Shown: positions 36,701 through 42,700 of the stretch, one piece after another
How the letters are laid out: each line of letters opens with the position of its first letter
Position numbering within the stretch: position 1 is the first letter of the stretch
Assembly: GCA_963717935.1 (NCBI GenBank)
Contig: CAVQXP010000004.1
Location: 896,001-960,000, forward strand
From: Candidatus Eiseniibacteriota bacterium
Lineage (GTDB): Bacteria; Eisenbacteria; RBG-16-71-46
Length of the DNA: 64,000 nt
Reading direction: 5' to 3'
Program-made: the position numbers

Positions 36701-39700
36701 TGTGACCCTTTCACGGGGTTCCATCACCCTGGCCCCGGTCCTGCTGGTGCTGGGCTACTGCGTCCTCATCCCCGTATCCCTCCTGTTTCGTGGGCGAAAG
36801 GCAGGTTCGGGCGAATAGCTCAGTTGGCAGAGCACTTGCCTTACAAGCAAGAGGTCACAGGTTCGAGCCCTGTTTCGCCCACCAGTGGGGTGCTGAGGTC
36901 ACGGGAAGCACCGGCCGGGCTGGCCCCGAGGGGCCAGAAACCCCGGAGACGGCAGGAAAACCGCAGAGACCGGCAGTTCGAGGGCCAAAAGAGTCTTGAC
37001 AGTGCGATGGCAAGGCCGATAAACTTACCAGCGGCATCAAACGCCTTGCTAACGCGGCAGATAACATCGCCTGGAGACTCGAACTCGCACTCTCGATGAG
37101 TTCGAAAGGAGGTGGCATCAAGGTAGACCTGCTTGCTCGCAACTGAGCCTTGCTCGATCTCAGCAACAGGGTGACCCATCTACTGGAGGTGCAACAATGA
37201 CTGGTGTTGTTCGCAAGGCCACCTTCCTTGCAGTACTTGGTCTCGCAGCGACGATGTCCGTCGCCATGGCCGGTGTCCCCTCTCCGGCCAACTGTACGCT
37301 TCCCACGTCCATCCAGATCGGCGGCTGCGACGCCCTCGACACGATCGATCCGACCATCTCCTTCAGCGTGACGATCCGCGACATCAGCAACTACCCCGTC
37401 GTCAATCAGCCGGTCGCGTGCCAGTTCAACAGCGACGTCAGGATCTACGACGGCGAGTTCGCCGGGTTCGTCTCCTGCCAGTGCGTCGAGGCCATCACGG
37501 ACATCAACGGCGTGGCGGTCTTCCACGTCGCGGGCGGCGGCAAGAACACGATCGGCGGGGCGGCCTACACGGGCGGCCTGGCGGCGACGTTCTATGGCTG
37601 GAACTGCGGCAACACGCTCGTCCTCGGCCAGGCCAACGTGAACGTGTACGACGAGAACGGTGGAGTCACCACCAAGGGCGTCGACATCACGGACCTGAGC
37701 GCCTGGAGCTCGGATTACAAGCTGCGCGCCACCCCGCCGGTCAAGTATCGCTCCGATTTCAACATGAGCGGTCTCGTGGACATCGTGGACCTGTCCTTCT
37801 GGGCCACGGTCTACAAGACTCAGTTGTCGAGGTACACCTGCGGCTCGCTCTGCCCGTAGTCGTACACAGGCAGTACGTGCTCGCGGAAAGAAAGGCGGTG
37901 ATGCGCGAGAAGAGAGGTTCGGGTGCCTGACATCTCCAGCAAGTAGTTCGCCTGACCCCCCTACAGCGGTTTCGGAGGCTGCAAATGAAGAAGACGCTTC
38001 TCTTTACGGGTCTGTTGCTGGCGCTGACGGTTTCGGTTGCGCTGGCCGGTGGCGTGAACCTCAACTGGGGCAATTACTGCTACACCGACATGCCCACGCC
38101 CACCACGTACTTCGCCTGCACCGTGAACACTTCCGTCGGCAATCGCGTCATGACCGTCTCCTGGATGCTCGACGAGCCGATGGCGGATCTGGTCGCGATG
38201 GAGTGGCTGATCGAGGGTCAGTCCGACGCTGACGTCCTCCCGGAATGGTGGCAGCTCGGTTCCGCCCTGACGGACTGCCGTTCGGGCAAGGCCACGTTCT
38301 TCTCGGACCGCACCCTGTGGGAAGGGTCCTGCCTGGATTGGTCCATGGGCGCGGCCTACAACGTGGGCGACTACACCTGGGACACGAACCGTGCCCACAT
38401 CGCCCTGGGTTACGCAGTCGCTGCTGATGGCCAGTACCTCGCGGTGCCGGGCCAGGAGTACTACGGCGGTGGCGTGAACATCCTCAACAGCAAGACGGTC
38501 GGTACGCCCAGCTGCGCGGGCTGCTCGATCGGCATGATCTTCGGGCTGCACACCCTCACGGCTGCCGGCCTTGACGGTCGCCGGGACGATTTCTTCGAGG
38601 CGCTTCCCGGTGGCAACCAGTGCCTGATCTGGAACAGCTCGGTTCAGGAGTGTCTGGAGCCGGTGCCCGCGCGCAACACGACGTGGGGCCAGGTCAAGAG
38701 CCTGTACCGGTAGTTTCTGGAAGTCGTTGCCTCCACGGGCGGTCGTCGCAAGACGACCGCCCGTCGGCTTGGGCGGGCAACGGCTGTCCCCGGGGACGCG
38801 CCGGGCTGGCCGCCCCCGCGGTGCCCGCCGCACGGCGGCTGCCCGTCCTGCCGGGCGCCCCTCCCCGGTGCTCCGGTCCCGGGCGCATCCCCCGTCGCAC
38901 CCTCCGGCCTCGCGAGGCACCCGCCTGCGGACGCTGAATTCCTGCTGGACGGGGGGGGCGGCTGCCGCTAACCTGCCGGCGTGCAGGTCTCGGGCCCGGG
39001 CTTGGTCACCCGGCCGCGACGCGACGCCTGGATGCGTCTGCCGCGATGCTTCGTGCGGAGGCGTCCCGCCGGATCGCGCCTGCGTGAGGGTCCGAGGCGA
39101 GGACGATGACGTCGCCACCGGGAGCGGGGCGTCTCGGCCCGGTTCGCAAGAGCCCTCGAGGAAGCAAGGGAAGAAAGGCGGTGATGCAAGGGTCCAGAAG
39201 GAGCTGGTCGCTCACCATCGGTGGCGCGTAGTTTTCCGTCCACCCCCGACACGGAGGTTGTTGATGAAGAAGATGATTCTCCTTACGAGCATGCTGCTGG
39301 CGCTGACGGTCTCGGCCGCGCTGGCGGGTGGCGTGAACCTCAACTGGGGCAATTACTGCTACACGGACGATCCCGTGGCCGCGACGGTCTTCGCCTGCGA
39401 CGTGAACACTTCCATCGGCAATCGCGTCATGACCGTCTCCTGGATGCTCGACGCTTCGATGGCGGACCTGGTCGCGATCGAGTGGCTGATCGAGGGCCAG
39501 TCCGACGCTGACGTCCTCCCGGAATGGTGGCAGCTCGGTGACGCCGTCACGGACTGCCGTTCGGGCAAGGCCACGTTCTTCTCGGACCGCACCCTGTACG
39601 AGGGGGCTTGCCTGGATTGGTCCATGGGCGCGGCCTACAACGTGGGCGACTACACCTGGGACACGAACAAGACCCACCTCGCCCTGGGTTACGCGGTCGC

Positions 39701-42700
39701 CGCCGATGGCCAGTACCTCGCGGTGCCGGGCCAGGAGTACTTCGGCGGTGGCGTGAACATCCTCAACAGCAAGACGGTCGGCACACCCAGCTGCGCGGGC
39801 TGCTCGATCGGCATGATCTTCGGGCTGCACACCCTCACGGTCGCCGCCCTTGACGGTCGCCGGGACGATTTCTTCGAGGCGCTTCCCGGTGGCAACCAGT
39901 GCCTGAGCTGGAACAATACGACCACGGATTGTTCCACTGTCCCGGTGCGCGGCACGACCTGGGGGCAGATCAAGAGCCTCTACCGGTAGTCCCGGCAGAC
40001 GGTCTGCAGATTCCCGCGGGCGGTCGTCCCAGGACGGCCGCCCGCGGGCTTGGCGCCGCCGCGCTTCCGGGCCGCCGCCCTTCGCCACCGCGGTCTTCCC
40101 TGTGATAGCCTTGCATCATGTCCGCACGCAGGCGGGTCTTCCTCATCGTGCTGGTCGTCTGTGGCTGCTCGTCCGCGGTTCCGGCGCGGGCGACGGAGGG
40201 CCTCTTCCTGACCTGGGTCGACTGCGCGCTGGCTCCCGGCTCGCCCCACGACCTCTCCTCGTCGTGCCTGAGCAACCTGGGTTCGCAGGATCTCTTCTGT
40301 GCCTTCCGGATGCCGTTTCCCACCGACAGCGTGCTCGGCGTAGAGATCGTGGTGGACGTGCAGCATGCGAACGCGACCCTGCCGGACTGGTGGAGGTTCG
40401 ACAACGTCGGGTGCCGCGCGGGGGAGCTGCGAGCGGGGACCGACTTTCCGGCGGCCTCGCCGTGCGTGGACTTCTTCCAGGACGAGGCGTTCAGCGACCT
40501 GCAGGGCTACTACCTCACCGAGCCGAACGGCGAATCCAACCAGGCCAGCATCCGCGTGGCCGCCTCGCTGCTGCCGAGCGCGGGCTACGTGCAACTCGAC
40601 TCGAGCAGCATGTACCTGGGGGTTCGCCTGAACATCTCCAACGCCCTTACCGTCGGCGTGACACCCTGCGGCGGCTGTCTCGACCCCGCCTGCCTCGTGC
40701 TCAACTCGGTCCTCGTGAGGCGGCAACCCGGGGCCGAGGGCGGCGACGTGTTCCTGAGCGTCCCGGGCCCGGATGACGCCAACTGGGCGACCTGGCAGGG
40801 TGGGATGGGCGCCAACTGCGCCGCCGTGCCGGTAAGGCCCGTGACCTGGGGCCGGCTGAAGGAGCTCTACCGATGATGCCTCTCCCGAGAAGCAGCCTGG
40901 CCGTGCTCGCGCTGGCCGGATGGTTCGTGCTGGGCCTGGCCGCTGGTCTCGCCCCCGCCGCGTCCGGGGTCGCGCCGGCGCAGGCGGCCCCGGGGTCCGC
41001 GGCCCCCCGCGTCGCGTCGCGCGATACCGGGCGGACGATGGCGTTCCCGGCCCACGGCAGCGCGGCGTTCGACAGCACGCTGGGAGATTCCTTCGCCGAG
41101 CCGCGCCTCTACATGGCGTGGAAGGCGCCCCACGGCATGCCCGGGGCGCGGACCAACCTGGACCTGGCCTGCGGTGATACGAGCAGGGTGGACACCCTCT
41201 ACCTCTCGTTCGAGACGGGCAGGGACCTGCCCGGGTTCTTTGGCGTGTCCGCCAGGCTCCGCTTCCACCCGGCCGAGGGCGACTCGCTCGGCGTCTTCTG
41301 GTCCTTCGGGAGCGACGGCGCGAACCCGGGGGCCCTGCAGATCCAGCTCGACCCCGACGGCACGTTCCCGTGTTCCCAGCCCTGGGTGCGACCCGGGGTC
41401 GGCATCCCCATGTTCGAGTTCCACCCCTGGGCAGCCCAGCTCGATTTCGTCTACGCGATGATCCGGGGGCAGGAGGCGCCGGTCTCGGGCCGCACGCGGT
41501 ATTGCTTCGCGCGCATCCTGCTCAAGCGAAACCGCTGCGCTCTGCCCGGTTCGCGCCAGCCCGTGTGCATCGAATGGGCGGAGGCCTTCTATTCGGGCGG
41601 GGGCCGCGACCTGCCGATCGAGCGCGGCCTGGCGCGCTACGTGACGGTGAACTCACCTGACGGGAGCGTGTGCGGGCCCTACCGCCGCTTCGCCAGGCCG
41701 GCCGCCTGGACCCCCGGCCGTCCGGGCCCGGGCGCGGCGGCTCCGGTCCGCGCGGCGCCGCCGGACACGACCCGGCGCTGAGCCGCGCTCGCGGCCGGGG
41801 GGAACCGGGACAGGCAGGACGGGGCGGCCTCCGCGAGGAAGCCGCCCCGTTCCGTTCGTCTGCCGCCCGCGCGAACCGTCAGTCGTTCGTCGGATCGGTG
41901 AGCAGGATGCGCATGAGCAGCTCGGGGTGCAGCTCGATCCGGTGCCGGTTCCGGTGGCGGGCCAGGAACTGCTTGAGGGCCTGCTCGGCCTTGAGGTTCT
42001 GCACCGACTGGTCGACGTTGTCCTGGACCTCCTCGTAGCGCATCGGCCGGTTCGGCTCGTGAGCCAGCTTCTGCAGCACGAGATAACTCCCCTGCGGATC
42101 GGGCCCCATGACCTCGATGTTGCCGGGACGCATCTCCTCGAAGAGGATCTTGTAGTAGGACGCCGCGCGATCGTCCTCGCGCAGGGAGCGGACCGAGCCC
42201 GAGACGAACCCGGCCAGCGAGTCCGCCCTCAGGATGGAGGCCGCCGGCTCGCCGGCCTTGAGACGGGCCACGACGGAATCGGCGCCCGCCCGGGTTCCGC
42301 GCACCAGGGCCGCGAAATGCACCTTCTGCCACGAGGCGAACTCGTGCTGATGGTCCTGGAAATACTGACGCCGCTCCTCGGGCGTGACCCACAGCCGGGA
42401 CTCCACCGAGTCGGCGAACAGGTGCTCGACCCTGATCTGCTCCTCCCGCTTGGCGACCTGGGAGGTGACCAGCGGATCCTGATCCAGCCCGCGCTCCACG
42501 GCGAATTCGGCCATGAAGGGCTCGAAGACGAACAGGTCGAGCGTCGAGCGGAAGGTGCCGAACGTGCCGACCTTGTTCCGCTGCATCACCGGGATGGCGT
42601 TGTACGCCTCGAGGAAGTCGCCCAGCGCATAGCGGCCGCCGTCCTTCCAGCGGGCCAGCACCCGTGCCGTGTCGGCGGGCTGGAACTCGGGCAGCACGCC

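Follow-up and report, generated by a model that had tools for sequence, protein, structure and literature searches.

An apparently undescribed C-terminal address peptide on 14 exported proteins of a Candidatus Eiseniibacteriota genome

Three neighbouring genes in a 64,000-nucleotide stretch of this genome (hereafter the window) encode proteins with the same ten-residue end, [ST]WGx[LIVM]Kx[LIMF]YR, which raises the question of what this tail does and what might read it. The survey's finding was that 14 proteins of the genome end in the motif and that it never occurs internally. A six-frame scan of the 3.02-Mb genome with a relaxed pattern (WG.[LIVMF]K.[LIMFV][YFW].stop) gave 14 matches, all of which fit the strict motif. 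In agreement, scanning with the strict motif returned 14 copies, each directly followed by a stop codon (14/14) and none internal, compared with a chance expectation below 0.001 (residue composition; 6,035,410 six-frame positions). Among 1931 ORFs taken as a crude proteome, no fixed-offset tripeptide at the C-terminus was more enriched than TWG at offset 10 (10 versus 0.15 expected), and this 65-fold enrichment reproduces the 63-fold reported before. Inspection of the N-termini likewise confirmed signal-peptide-like sequences in 13/13 full-length tag proteins. The tag matched none of the Pfam or NCBIfam sorting-signal models and, as first described, has no hydrophobic helix behind it. It is apparently a previously undescribed address peptide on 14 exported proteins.

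The three window copies recognised earlier (B1, B2 and B3) stand, and we added a fourth (Table 1). B2 is 84–86% identical to B1, and B3 is a distant paralogue of both (BLASTP E 5e-9 to B1) that aligns with the tail-less A1 body at an hhalign probability of 99.9%; its N-terminal LVVCGC may be a lipobox. Among the B1 homologues listed as matches, 117/120 end in the tag. Pfam searches gave no match for either of the untagged secreted proteins that flank the three genes. The downstream one is distantly related to the B family (hhalign to A1: probability 85%, E 6e-6, 129 columns). By eye, the upstream one has a dockerin-like C-terminal segment, DFNMSGLVDIVDLSFW, and proteins with similar ends occupy the matching position in genomes G205 and G210.

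Table 1. Tag genes and other features of the window.
Feature	Position	Strand	Description
Fourth tag protein, 212 aa	7544..8182	+	Lamin-Tail-Domain-like body, end ..QVPTWGRLKTLYR; tag + stop 8150-8182
ruvX	33636-34073	+	Synteny anchor shared with G205 (L166) and G210 (L184)
yceG/mltG	34314-35225	+	Pfam YceG; synteny anchor shared with G205 (L166) and G210 (L184)
Secreted untagged protein, 220 aa	37197..37859	+	Directly upstream of B1
B1, tag protein, 242 aa	37985..38713	+	Signal peptide, cohesin-like beta-sandwich (modelled), linker, tail ..RNTTWGQVKSLYR
B1 tag codons + stop	38681-38713	+	From the ORF
B2, tag protein, 241 aa	39264..39989	+	End ..TTWGQIKSLYR; tag + stop 39957-39989
B3, tag protein, 252 aa	40118..40876	+	End ..VTWGRLKELYR; tag + stop 40844-40876
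Secreted untagged protein, 302 aa	40873..41781	+	Start overlaps B3 stop
PorU-like paralogue PorU-L, 2311 aa	47375..54310	+	Propeptide_C25, Peptidase_C25, FlgD_ig-type T9SS C-terminal domain

With the tails removed, BLASTP and hhalign found likeness only among B1–B3 and between the proteins at C4:1225417 and C4:1766138, the same two paralogue groups that had been named as the exceptions to otherwise unrelated bodies. The claim that no carrier has a Pfam match fails for the tag protein at C2:436940-437866, which scores 39.6 bits for NHL repeats (cut-off 20) and 41.6 bits for SGL (cut-off 26.3), and the fourth window protein falls just under the Lamin Tail Domain (LTD) cut-off (31.5 versus 34.3 bits). 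The supposed 50-aa fragment does end in the tag, and its origin is recast as the 3′ end, lying out of frame, of a Lamin-Tail-Domain gene (L005:4357-5133 plus 5001-5282) that appears to be frameshifted. The NHL body had 38 matches at E ≤ 0.001, comprising 37 remote relatives and one 96%-identical copy with the tag; three of the relatives end in a T9SS C-terminal domain, three in a transmembrane helix plus RRSRR anchor and six in a ..FFRLR-type tail. From these sequences, the tag fits the slot used by other anchors in relatives of the NHL body.

AlphaFold2 models of two carriers, built on deep alignments, gave bodies with pLDDT >90, and drew the last ~20 residues as a low-confidence linker and a short, unpacked helix. 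In the B1 model (pLDDT 89), the tail has pLDDT 46–63 and is drawn as a helix at 234–241. The models place the tag outside the carrier fold, on a flexible linker. The carriers are always beta-rich extracytoplasmic proteins, as expected if the tail were only a small structural piece that they have in common (closing the domain as its final secondary-structure element, with no addressing role), but their unrelated bodies and the unpacked tail in both models make this very improbable. The survey had read the tail as a sorting or recognition signal and not as part of a domain, and the unrelated bodies, the tail outside the fold, its strictly terminal position and the anchor slot all support that view of what would be a sorting signal.

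A conservation profile of 120 cross-phylum tails extended the motif. Since the search pattern preset W, G, K, Y and R, the profile is uninformative on those residues; upstream of the pattern it shows P at −17, V/T at −16, P at −15, V/T/A at −14 and E/R at −13, and within the helix I/V at −6, S/A at −4 (85/120 tails) and L/M at −3, with −7 the sole free position. In these alignments the conserved unit spans some 18 residues, (C)-P-[VT]-P-[VT]-[ER]-x-x-[ST]-W-G-x-[IV]-K-[SA]-[LM]-Y-R, with the decapeptide as its end. Occasional tails at loci of other genomes run 1–5 residues longer (..YKN, ..YRD and ..YRTDRP). The terminal helix could instead be an in-plane amphipathic anchor that attaches by itself to the membrane interface or to anionic LPS, with no dedicated reader, comparable to the C-terminal helices of MinD and PBP5. 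One face of it would carry W, I/V, L/M and Y, with K and R beside; W, Y, K and R commonly occupy membrane interfaces, the tail is modelled as a short helix behind a flexible linker, and no reader protein was identified. However, generic membrane helices accept conservative swaps and a variable polar face, whereas in the 61 members of the window family W, G, K, L, Y and R never vary, −4 is so often S/A, and a fixed Pro-rich segment and E/R at −13 lie upstream; nine residues with one central Lys would also anchor weakly. Because the helix is constrained almost all round its circumference, burial in a protein pocket fits better than lying on a membrane, and we consider the anchor unlikely. A sorting or docking role for the tail, with a protein as its reader, is quite probable. 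Encapsulin cargo-loading peptides show the properties proposed here, with ~10 conserved residues on a flexible linker, unrelated cargo and a protein-pocket reader, but they are cytoplasmic and their cargo lacks signal peptides.

The tag is not confined to this genome. Its DNA pattern matched 180/206 genomes of the phylum, with up to 37 matches per genome and none for a reversed-pattern control, and MAGs with the labels Latescibacteria, Krumholzibacteriota, Zixibacteria, "Fibrobacteraceae" and "Gemmatimonadota" carry the tag too. The spread given before (34 of 41 Eisenbacteria genomes, up to 24 copies, and Krumholzibacteriota) was right as to presence and too narrow in extent. In Bacteroidota, the pattern matched 1/101 genomes, that one by chance.

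Like PEP-CTERM/exosortase, LPXTG/sortase and GlyGly-CTERM/rhombosortase signals, the tag is a short C-terminal motif on many unrelated secreted proteins per genome, and it occupies the slot where relatives have such anchors; in contrast to these tripartite signals, it has no transmembrane helix or basic cluster and does not co-occur with exosortase. A degenerate PEP-CTERM-type signal handled by the genome's exosortase is hardly credible. G000, the genome of the window, does encode an XrtA-like exosortase (PF09721, 205 bits) for which just one classical PEP-CTERM protein was found, and [VT]-P-[VT]-[ER] is faintly VPEP-like, but the helix and Arg cluster are both absent, and exosortase (E ≤ 1e-30) is present in only 43/63 genomes at least 95% complete and missing from tag-rich G149, G133, G128, G073, G068, G136 and G063. 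This phyletic pattern contradicts exosortase as the tag reader. A C-terminal pro-peptide or degron is quite improbable. Here the free ..LYR-COOH would be read by a PDZ-type protease of the periplasm (S41/CtpA-Prc or HtrA class), which would trim, activate or degrade the carriers, and the extreme C-terminal position in 14/14 fits free-carboxylate recognition. However, neither the 46 G000 neighbours nor, by eye, 22 loci in other genomes showed a PDZ or S41 gene. Proteases of this kind are universal, the tag is confined to certain lineages, and some tails extend past the motif.

[quoted passage not shown] T9SS cargo (TIGR04183) is present in 206/206 genomes of the phylum and in 5/5 tag-bearing genomes from other lineages; since T9SS is, to our knowledge, near-universal in the host's superphylum, this co-occurrence is weak evidence. 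Of 11 tag loci in G000, 5 have a gene with a T9SS C-terminal domain no more than 3 kb away; random genes would give 0.65 such loci (P = 0.0004), and genes with signal-peptide-like starts 1.1 (P = 0.0006). Tag genes near such genes were also seen by eye in G210 and G206. Like T9SS C-terminal domains (type A, TIGR04183/PF18962; FlgD_ig-like, PF13860), which work with the sortase PorU and the shuttle PorV, the tag sits at the C-terminus of Sec-exported, otherwise unrelated proteins, is restricted to the FCB superphylum, clusters with C-terminal-domain genes and ends in hydrophobic residues followed by a basic one. Unlike them, it has 10–18 residues and not a 70–100-aa Ig-like domain, matches no HMM and was not found in 100/101 Bacteroidota, the remaining match being by chance; it is no general trait of T9SS. 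We know of T9SS export only for folded C-terminal domains of 70–100 aa. A T9SS link for the tag is plausible but tentative.

Besides T9SS cargo, G000 encodes three barrels of the PorV family and three PorU-like C25 peptidases. One of the peptidases is PorU-L (Pfam C25 209 bits, FlgD_ig 34.8 bits, NCBIfam PorU 201 bits, cut-off 420); another C25 gene adjoins PorV. The window, G205 (f18) and G210 (Latescibacteria) share the order ruvX, yceG, secreted protein, two or three tag genes and a Propeptide_C25, Peptidase_C25 and C-terminal-domain gene; two minus-strand genes separate the window tag genes from PorU-L, so they are not one operon. The adjoining C25 genes of G205, G210 and G213 score 269, 196 and 199 bits against the window paralogue versus 98, 119 and 78 against canonical PorU. 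Same-strand tag genes lie 2–13 kb upstream of a PorU-L orthologue in G060 and in 9/9 further f1 genomes, which are close kin and not independent counts, and directly upstream in G213, G206 and G215, where the G215 neighbours end ..MYE or ..MFE, not ..LYR. The PorU-L-specific N-terminal region was found in 20/20 tag-bearing genomes tested and, weakly, in 4/61 Bacteroidota. Small tag proteins thus lie just upstream of one PorU-like C25 paralogue in several deep lineages, and this conserved neighbour is not the PorV-adjacent PorU of the PorU/PorV pair. No tag was found within 12–14 kb upstream of a probable PorU-L orthologue in 11 genomes of f4, f5, f7, f8, f10, f13 and f14 or in G057 (f15), with f4–f7 orthology resting on 45–62-bit matches; G046 (f12) has only a variant tag nearby, on the opposite strand. 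Genomes without a tag beside this gene still have tags elsewhere. Adjacency of tag genes to any C25 gene was not enriched (~7 near pairs versus a rough expectation of 3–6 in 22 genomes with 3–21 C25 genes each). The conserved partner of PorU-L may be the cohesin-like body of these tag proteins, not the tag.

The best Foldseek matches of the B1 model are cohesin modules (2vo8, E 3.6e-5, TMt 0.60), with moderate TM-scores of 0.5–0.65, and the G210 counterparts of the window tag proteins are modelled as cohesin-like too. A cohesin-like fold, newly seen in these models, adjoins the PorU-like paralogue in two families without sequence relation. The arrangement resembles cohesin–dockerin scaffoldins in these folds and in the neighbour's dockerin-like end (by eye), but these proteins have no Pfam Cohesin or Dockerin match and the host is diderm. 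Anchoring scaffoldins carry a cell-surface anchor where the carriers here have the tag. The tag might be a minimal dockerin, bound by cohesin-type modules that belong either to cohesin proteins anchored through T9SS or to the cohesin-like tag proteins, so that a surface scaffold or polymer displays other tagged proteins and the C25 peptidase, by analogy with type V pili, might mature it. PMC8512630 describes protease-mediated donor-strand exchange in those pili and a T9SS-exported C25-family protease. Type V pilins (FimA/Mfa1) are also small beta-sandwich proteins that occur as clustered paralogues and share a conserved segment at the C-terminus; unlike these two-domain lipoproteins of Bacteroidia only, the window proteins have a single cohesin-like domain and mostly a signal-peptidase-I type signal, and the tag is found as well at the end of LTD, NHL and further unrelated proteins. 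Both cohesin-like families, their C25 neighbour, a G000 tag gene flanked by proteins that combine Pfam Cohesin with a T9SS C-terminal domain, and the sole Pfam cohesin gene of G210, which abuts three tag genes, speak for a minimal dockerin. It is nevertheless distinctly unlikely: Pfam Cohesin (E ≤ 1e-5) occurs in only 71/125 genomes at least 90% complete and is absent from tag-rich G149, G133, G160, G064 and G106, in 12 genomes with ~30 cohesin loci, none of these loci has a listed tag closer than 10 kb, and there is no Pfam dockerin match. A Pfam cohesin was rejected as the tag reader on this distribution; divergent cohesin-like folds may escape Pfam, so a missing match does not equal cohesin absence.

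According to PMC4560394, PMC8545088 and PMC4804311, PorU is a sortase-like C-terminal signal peptidase. Our best reading, at a probability of roughly one half, is a sorting or docking tag linked to T9SS surface machinery, with PorU-L as the prime reader candidate; PorU-L as the actual reader is possible but doubtful. We infer the sorting, surface location, cleavage and reader from the patterns above. Carriers would be exported via Sec with the tag at the end of a flexible linker behind unrelated bodies. After export, a cell-envelope protein would bind the extended Pro-rich stretch and the short helix with its free C-terminus, docking or sorting the carrier to the cell surface. PorU-L, a C25 cysteine peptidase and itself T9SS cargo, might read or cut the tag as PorU removes C-terminal domains; alternatively, it might mature a cohesin-like scaffold at which other tagged proteins dock. 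Whichever applies, the tag is widespread among related uncultured phyla.

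Fourteen proteins of this genome (G000; 3.02 Mb, ∼71% G+C, 5 contigs) had been proposed to end in the tag [ST]WGx[LIVM]Kx[LIMF]YR followed by a stop. A relaxed six-frame pattern, WG.[LIVMF]K.[LIMFV][YFW].stop, returned 14 matches, all within the strict motif, and each of the 14 strict six-frame occurrences stood directly before a stop codon, with none internal, as the survey had described. From residue composition, the strict motif is expected <0.001 times in the 6,035,410 six-frame positions. TWG was again the top enriched fixed-offset C-terminal tripeptide (offset 10; 10 observed versus 0.15 expected in a crude proteome of 1931 ORFs, the G000 gene calls being crude), and signal-peptide-like N-termini were recognised by eye in all 13 full-length carriers. 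Four of the carriers lie in the window (G000:C4:896001-960000), and among these, only the third of the tandem paralogues has a lipobox-like N-terminus. BLASTP without the last 16 residues joined only the three window paralogues and one further pair, confirming that the bodies are otherwise unrelated; with tails removed, hhalign of 10 other carriers against the window family (these three paralogues and their homologues) and a second cohesin-like family found none related (top probability 11%). The reported absence of family matches held for NCBIfam, where carriers gave far-sub-threshold matches only, but not entirely for Pfam: one carrier lies above the thresholds for NHL and SGL. The first carrier of the window reached 31.5 bits for the Lamin Tail Domain (LTD), just under the cut-off of 34.3. 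A supposed 50-aa fragment does exist as a short tag-bearing ORF, but is really the 3′ end, out of frame, of an apparently frameshifted LTD gene.

The tag was characterised with 120 distinct open tails (no stop over 30 aa; one genome per species), in which W, G, K, Y, R and [ST] were preset by the search pattern and are therefore uninformative. Conservation reached upstream of the decapeptide, with Cys at positions −18 to −20 in 64/120 tails, P at −17 in 42, V or T at −16 (52 and 39), P at −15 (66), V, T or A at −14 (43, 39 and 19) and E or R at −13 (47 and 26), R being favoured in Eisenbacteria and E in other lineages. Nearer the end, position −7 was free, −6 was I or V (48 and 47), −4 S or A (43 and 42) and −3 L or M (82 and 18). 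In the window family, W, G, K, L, Y and R were invariant in 61/61 sequences. Some lineages depart from the last residue and from strict terminality, with variant tails such as ..SWGAIKSMYE, ..WGAVKSMFE, ..WGQIKALYH, ..ALYKN, ..ALYRD and ..ALYRTDRP. We consider the tag to be a sorting or docking signal read by an envelope protein (probability roughly 80%); the rivals weighed were a direct lipid or LPS anchor, a mini-dockerin, a pro-peptide read by a PDZ domain, a PEP-CTERM variant and a plain structural element.

A window protein was modelled with AlphaFold2 (61-row alignment) as a confident beta-sandwich (mean pLDDT 89, pTM 0.82), from which residues 223–242 dropped to pLDDT 63–46, with residues 234–241 forming a free helix. 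A protein of a second family, from the Latescibacteria genome G210, gave a similar model (pLDDT 88, tail helix ∼67–74). Plotted on a helical wheel, the tag helix is constrained around almost its entire circumference, which suggests to us a helix buried in a protein pocket rather than one touching a lipid surface. Foldseek matched the models best to cohesin modules: 2vo8 for the window protein (E 3.6e-5, TMt 0.60), and 6kgc_A (E 2.3e-5) and 5n5p_A (TMt 0.62) for the G210 protein. Both families are thus predicted to share the nine-stranded beta-sandwich fold of cohesins, with moderate similarity. They show no sequence kinship outside the tail, and Pfam PF00963 (Cohesin) matched none of the three window paralogues or two G210 proteins scanned, a set that did not include the folded G210 protein. 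None of the homologues found for the body of the window family was longer, which is weak evidence.

These folds bring in the reading of the tag as a mini-dockerin. Dockerins consist of duplicated Ca-binding loop–helix segments of ∼60–70 aa, whereas the tag has just one helix of 9 residues, and no Pfam Dockerin match was found in tag proteins. Pfam-detectable cohesins were rejected as the tag receptor, being present in only 71/125 genomes and generally not adjoining tag genes. Complex prediction for two copies of the mature window protein scored 0.00 against a mark of 0.42, which speaks neither for nor against binding. Beside tag clusters, we also observed secreted proteins with a dockerin-like segment, then a Cys, at the end (..DFNAISAHVGHDCDSP, ..LPDFAKFGEHFNHPC), the likeness being by eye; they showed no BLAST likeness between genomes and no Pfam match, and are possible partners for the cohesin-like tag proteins. 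Type V pilins have a lipoprotein signal and two transthyretin-like domains, unlike the window family with its single cohesin-like domain.

The tag occupies the slot of other anchors. The NHL carrier had 38 matches at E ≤ 0.001, namely one 96%-identical tag-bearing copy and 37 remote relatives, of which three ended in a type IX secretion system (T9SS) C-terminal domain, three in a TM helix plus RRSRR and six in a ..FFRLR-type tail. Likewise, in G000 both LTD and cohesin domains are found combined either with the tag or with a T9SS C-terminal domain. The T9SS type A domain (TIGR04183/PF18962/PF13860) is a beta-sandwich of ∼70–100 aa, whereas the tag spans 10–18 aa and is modelled as a helix; T9SS C-terminal-domain models (Pfam and NCBIfam, E ≤ 0.1) matched 0/13 tag proteins, and no Pfam or NCBIfam model matched the tag. 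What tag proteins share with type A cargo is the signal-peptide-like N-terminus and a T9SS-encoding host. Type A cargo further depends on T9SS for export and loses its signal to PorU on attachment to anionic LPS; for tag proteins, gene context points that way only indirectly. A PEP-CTERM variant would feature a PEP motif, a TM helix and an Arg-rich cluster, but tag tails have neither a hydrophobic stretch nor an Arg cluster. An exosortase as tag reader was likewise rejected, as exosortases occur in 43/63 genomes that are ≥95% complete and are absent from several tag-rich ones. An XrtA-like exosortase is encoded in G000 itself, within an EPS-type locus. Separately, a regular expression found only one classical PEP-CTERM protein in G000 (VPEP, TM helix, RRRRH), whose end contrasts with the tag tails. 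It was missed by the TIGR02595 search, and its gene directly follows a T9SS C-terminal-domain gene.

Features of the window, of G000 and of the compared loci (L numbers)
Feature	Location	Remark
Tag carrier	window 7544-8182	near LTD
tRNA-Val (anticodon TAC)	window 36809-36884	directly upstream of secreted-protein and tag cluster
Secreted protein, dockerin-like end	window 37197-37859	220 aa
Tag carrier, window family	window 37985-38713	no PF00963 match
Tag carrier, window family	window 39264-39989	no PF00963 match
Tag carrier, window family	window 40118-40876	no PF00963 match; lipobox-like
PorU-like paralogue	window 47375-54310	C25 peptidase
NHL/SGL carrier	G000:C2:436940-437866	
LTD gene, apparently frameshifted	L005:4357-5282 = G000:C4:451780-452705	tag-bearing 3′ end in another frame
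Related carrier pair	G000:C4:1225417; C4:1766138	
Classical PEP-CTERM protein	G000:∼C4:585400-586000	minus strand
XrtA-like exosortase	G000:C4:1716212-1716973	
Canonical PorU	G000:C4:1846566	adjoins PorV
PorV-family barrels	L193, L194, L195 = G000:C4:1849086, C5:18038, C4:999958	
Dockerin-like-ended secreted proteins	L166:8394-9317, 10234-11229, 11444-12280	G205
Dockerin-like-ended secreted protein	L184:8604-9350	G210
Folded cohesin-like protein	L184:7273-7863	G210
Proteins scanned with PF00963	L184:7959-8546, 6276-6905	G210; no match
Variant-tail ORFs	L226 (G215:C1:111000-123000)	ORF ends 9825, 10538, 11255
Variant-tail ORFs	L175:5332-6114; L179:11930-12616; L179:12910-13815; L174:667-1074	

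In the window, ruvX and yceG are followed by the secreted protein with a dockerin-like end (by eye), the three tag proteins and a tag-less remote paralogue, 5.6 kb beyond which lies the PorU-like gene, so that the cluster has ruvX–yceG and tRNA-Val at one end, and at the other the PorU-like gene. Its product (2311 aa) matched Propeptide_C25 (21.7 bits), Peptidase_C25 (209 bits) and FlgD_ig (34.8 bits) in Pfam, whereas ∼1000 residues at its N-terminus matched nothing there. NCBIfam PorU (NF033707) was the nearest family, but the scores of 201 bits, and of 146 and 155 bits for the counterparts in G205 (family f18 of the phylum) and G210, fell below the cut-off of 420. Since the canonical PorU of G000 is another C25 gene, adjoining PorV, we treat the window gene as a paralogue. 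G000 has three C25 paralogues, and related genomes 3–21. The order from ruvX to peptidase recurs in G205 (L166) and G210 (L184); in G210, three tag genes stand immediately before the peptidase gene. The neighbouring C25 proteins of G205, G210 and G213 matched the window paralogue better than the canonical PorU (269 versus 98, 196 versus 119 and 199 versus 78 bits). Together, the synteny and the predicted folds point to a conserved module of a dockerin-like-ended secreted protein, small cohesin-like tag proteins and a PorU-like peptidase that is itself putative T9SS cargo.

Upstream of the paralogue's orthologue, two to five co-directional tag genes were present in all nine further genomes of family f1, which are close kin and not independent. 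One tag gene was found in G060 (f15), and a tag gene directly adjoined the orthologue in G213 (185-bp gap) and G206; in G215, three tandem ∼195-aa ORFs had the variant tails ..MYE and ..MFE. No tag was seen within 12–14 kb in 11 genomes of f4, f5, f7, f8, f10, f13 and f14 (orthology in f4–f7 being based on weak matches), nor within 14 kb in G057 (f15). Single variants occurred in G046 (f12; ..TTWAQVKSLYR, opposite strand) and G018 (f6; ..STWGALKSLFR, same strand, 10.8 kb upstream), and two contigs too short to judge were left out. The N-terminal region of the paralogue was found in 20/20 tag-bearers tested and, weakly, in 4/61 Bacteroidota. Adjacency of any C25 gene to any tag was rejected as a general rule, as it was not enriched over all C25 genes; near pairs with other C25 genes involved orthologues of the third paralogue. 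Among C25 genes, conserved synteny with tags is confined to this specific PorU-like paralogue. Selenocysteine in its orthologues was also dismissed, the in-frame stops being true gene stops and the G000 protein ∼10 aa longer.

The tag had been placed in Eisenbacteria and Krumholzibacteriota. Both were recovered, and its spread is wider: the DNA pattern WSNTGGGGNNNNNTNAARNNNNTNTAYMGNTRR, whose counts in other genomes are matches and not checked genes, occurred in 180/206 genomes of the phylum (107/121 of good quality; up to 37 per genome) and in at least five other labelled lineages, whereas the reversed-pattern control gave 0 matches in every genome. Phylum tallies for tag pattern, TIGR04183, Pfam Cohesin, exosortase and in-frame stops include the unpublished genome G073, on which alone no claim is made. 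A scan of 185,579 species genomes gave at least 125 matching stretches; the 120 distinct open tails come from the matches listed, among which four had stops upstream by eye and one more was doubtful. Eisenbacteria was the commonest label among these listed matches, which also included Krumholzibacteriota/-ia (5), Latescibacteria/-ota (6), 'Fibrobacteraceae' or Fibrobacter sp. MAGs (8), 'Gemmatimonadota' MAG (2), Zixibacteria (1) and Effluviviaceae (1). Pattern matches per genome numbered 25 in G206, 23 in G210, 15 in G213, 12 in G208 and 6 in G215. In a Bacteroidota sample, 1/101 genomes had the pattern, as a chance match with stops upstream. The window family had 260 homologues at E ≤ 0.001, and of the best 120 of these, 117 were tag-ended, two truncated and one ended in ..YRN. 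In family f18, the DNA pattern was found in just 18/41 genomes. Since f18 carries real tags plus variants outside the pattern (..VWGKIKSLYR, ..TWGKIKQTYR), subtractive profiling of f18 against the rest was dropped as unsound. A 1.3-Mb bin labelled Kerfeldbacteria (G207, holding L105) has 2 tags together with 3 strong T9SS C-terminal domains, which makes its label or binning look wrong.

TIGR04183 was present in 206/206 phylum genomes and in 5/5 tag-bearers outside, one of the five being the Kerfeldbacteria-labelled bin of doubtful label. G000 has 45 TIGR04183 matches, 40 FlgD_ig matches and three PorV-family barrels, and its three C25 peptidases all lie in frames ending in a T9SS C-terminal domain. 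A T9SS C-terminal-domain gene lay ≤3 kb from 5/11 tag loci, compared with 0.65 expected with random genes (P = 0.0004) and 1.1 with signal-peptide-like genes (P = 0.0006); the same flanking was seen by eye in G210 and G206. A PorP_SprF (PF11751) search of G000 had no match, and its control was also without a match anywhere. One PorV-family barrel follows the canonical PorU-like gene, and the other two stand beside large proteins whose ends, ..GKFLIVKSDRE or ..GKFVVIR, may represent another variant of the C-terminal domain. A tie between the tag and T9SS surface machinery is plausible, although we favour it only tentatively.

Short C-terminal sorting signals define whole pathways, as for sortase, exosortase and T9SS. 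The PorU-like paralogue is the prime candidate for reader or maturase of the tag, a role that we regard as possible but doubtful. The data agree with two versions. In one, it would cut within or before the tag and then fix or free the carrier, much as PorU acts on the C-terminal domains of T9SS cargo (PMC4560394, PMC8545088). In the other, the cohesin-like tag proteins would assemble a scaffold that receives the tails of other carriers and that the protease matures, which can be likened to the proteinase-mediated strand exchange of type V pili (PMC8512630). We speculate, at rather long odds, that uncultured FCB phyla have an undescribed second T9SS-type sorting branch, in which a dedicated PorU-like C25 transpeptidase reads an 18-residue linear signal rather than a folded C-terminal domain, and either cuts and surface-links the carrier or matures the cohesin-like scaffold that docks all others. 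The tag was not found in literature on Eisenbacteria C-terminal secretion and PorU, where motif strings as such are not searchable, and the only match to the name 'PorU2' was a superscript artefact in PMC12365241.

New here are the corrections to the survey's finding, the cohesin-like fold, the rejection of exosortase and the conserved PorU-like neighbour. The tag marks 14 proteins in G000 and extends to five or more other labelled lineages, among uncultured soil, sediment and groundwater bacteria. If a second T9SS-type branch does exist, it would make a new pairing of signal and sortase, active on thousands of proteins. The pairing with the PorU-like paralogue and cohesin-like proteins makes the tag machinery a testable proposal. 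As a sorting tag, it would provide a simple sequence rule predicting the surface or exo-proteome of the carrier phyla, and would point to machinery yet to be found.
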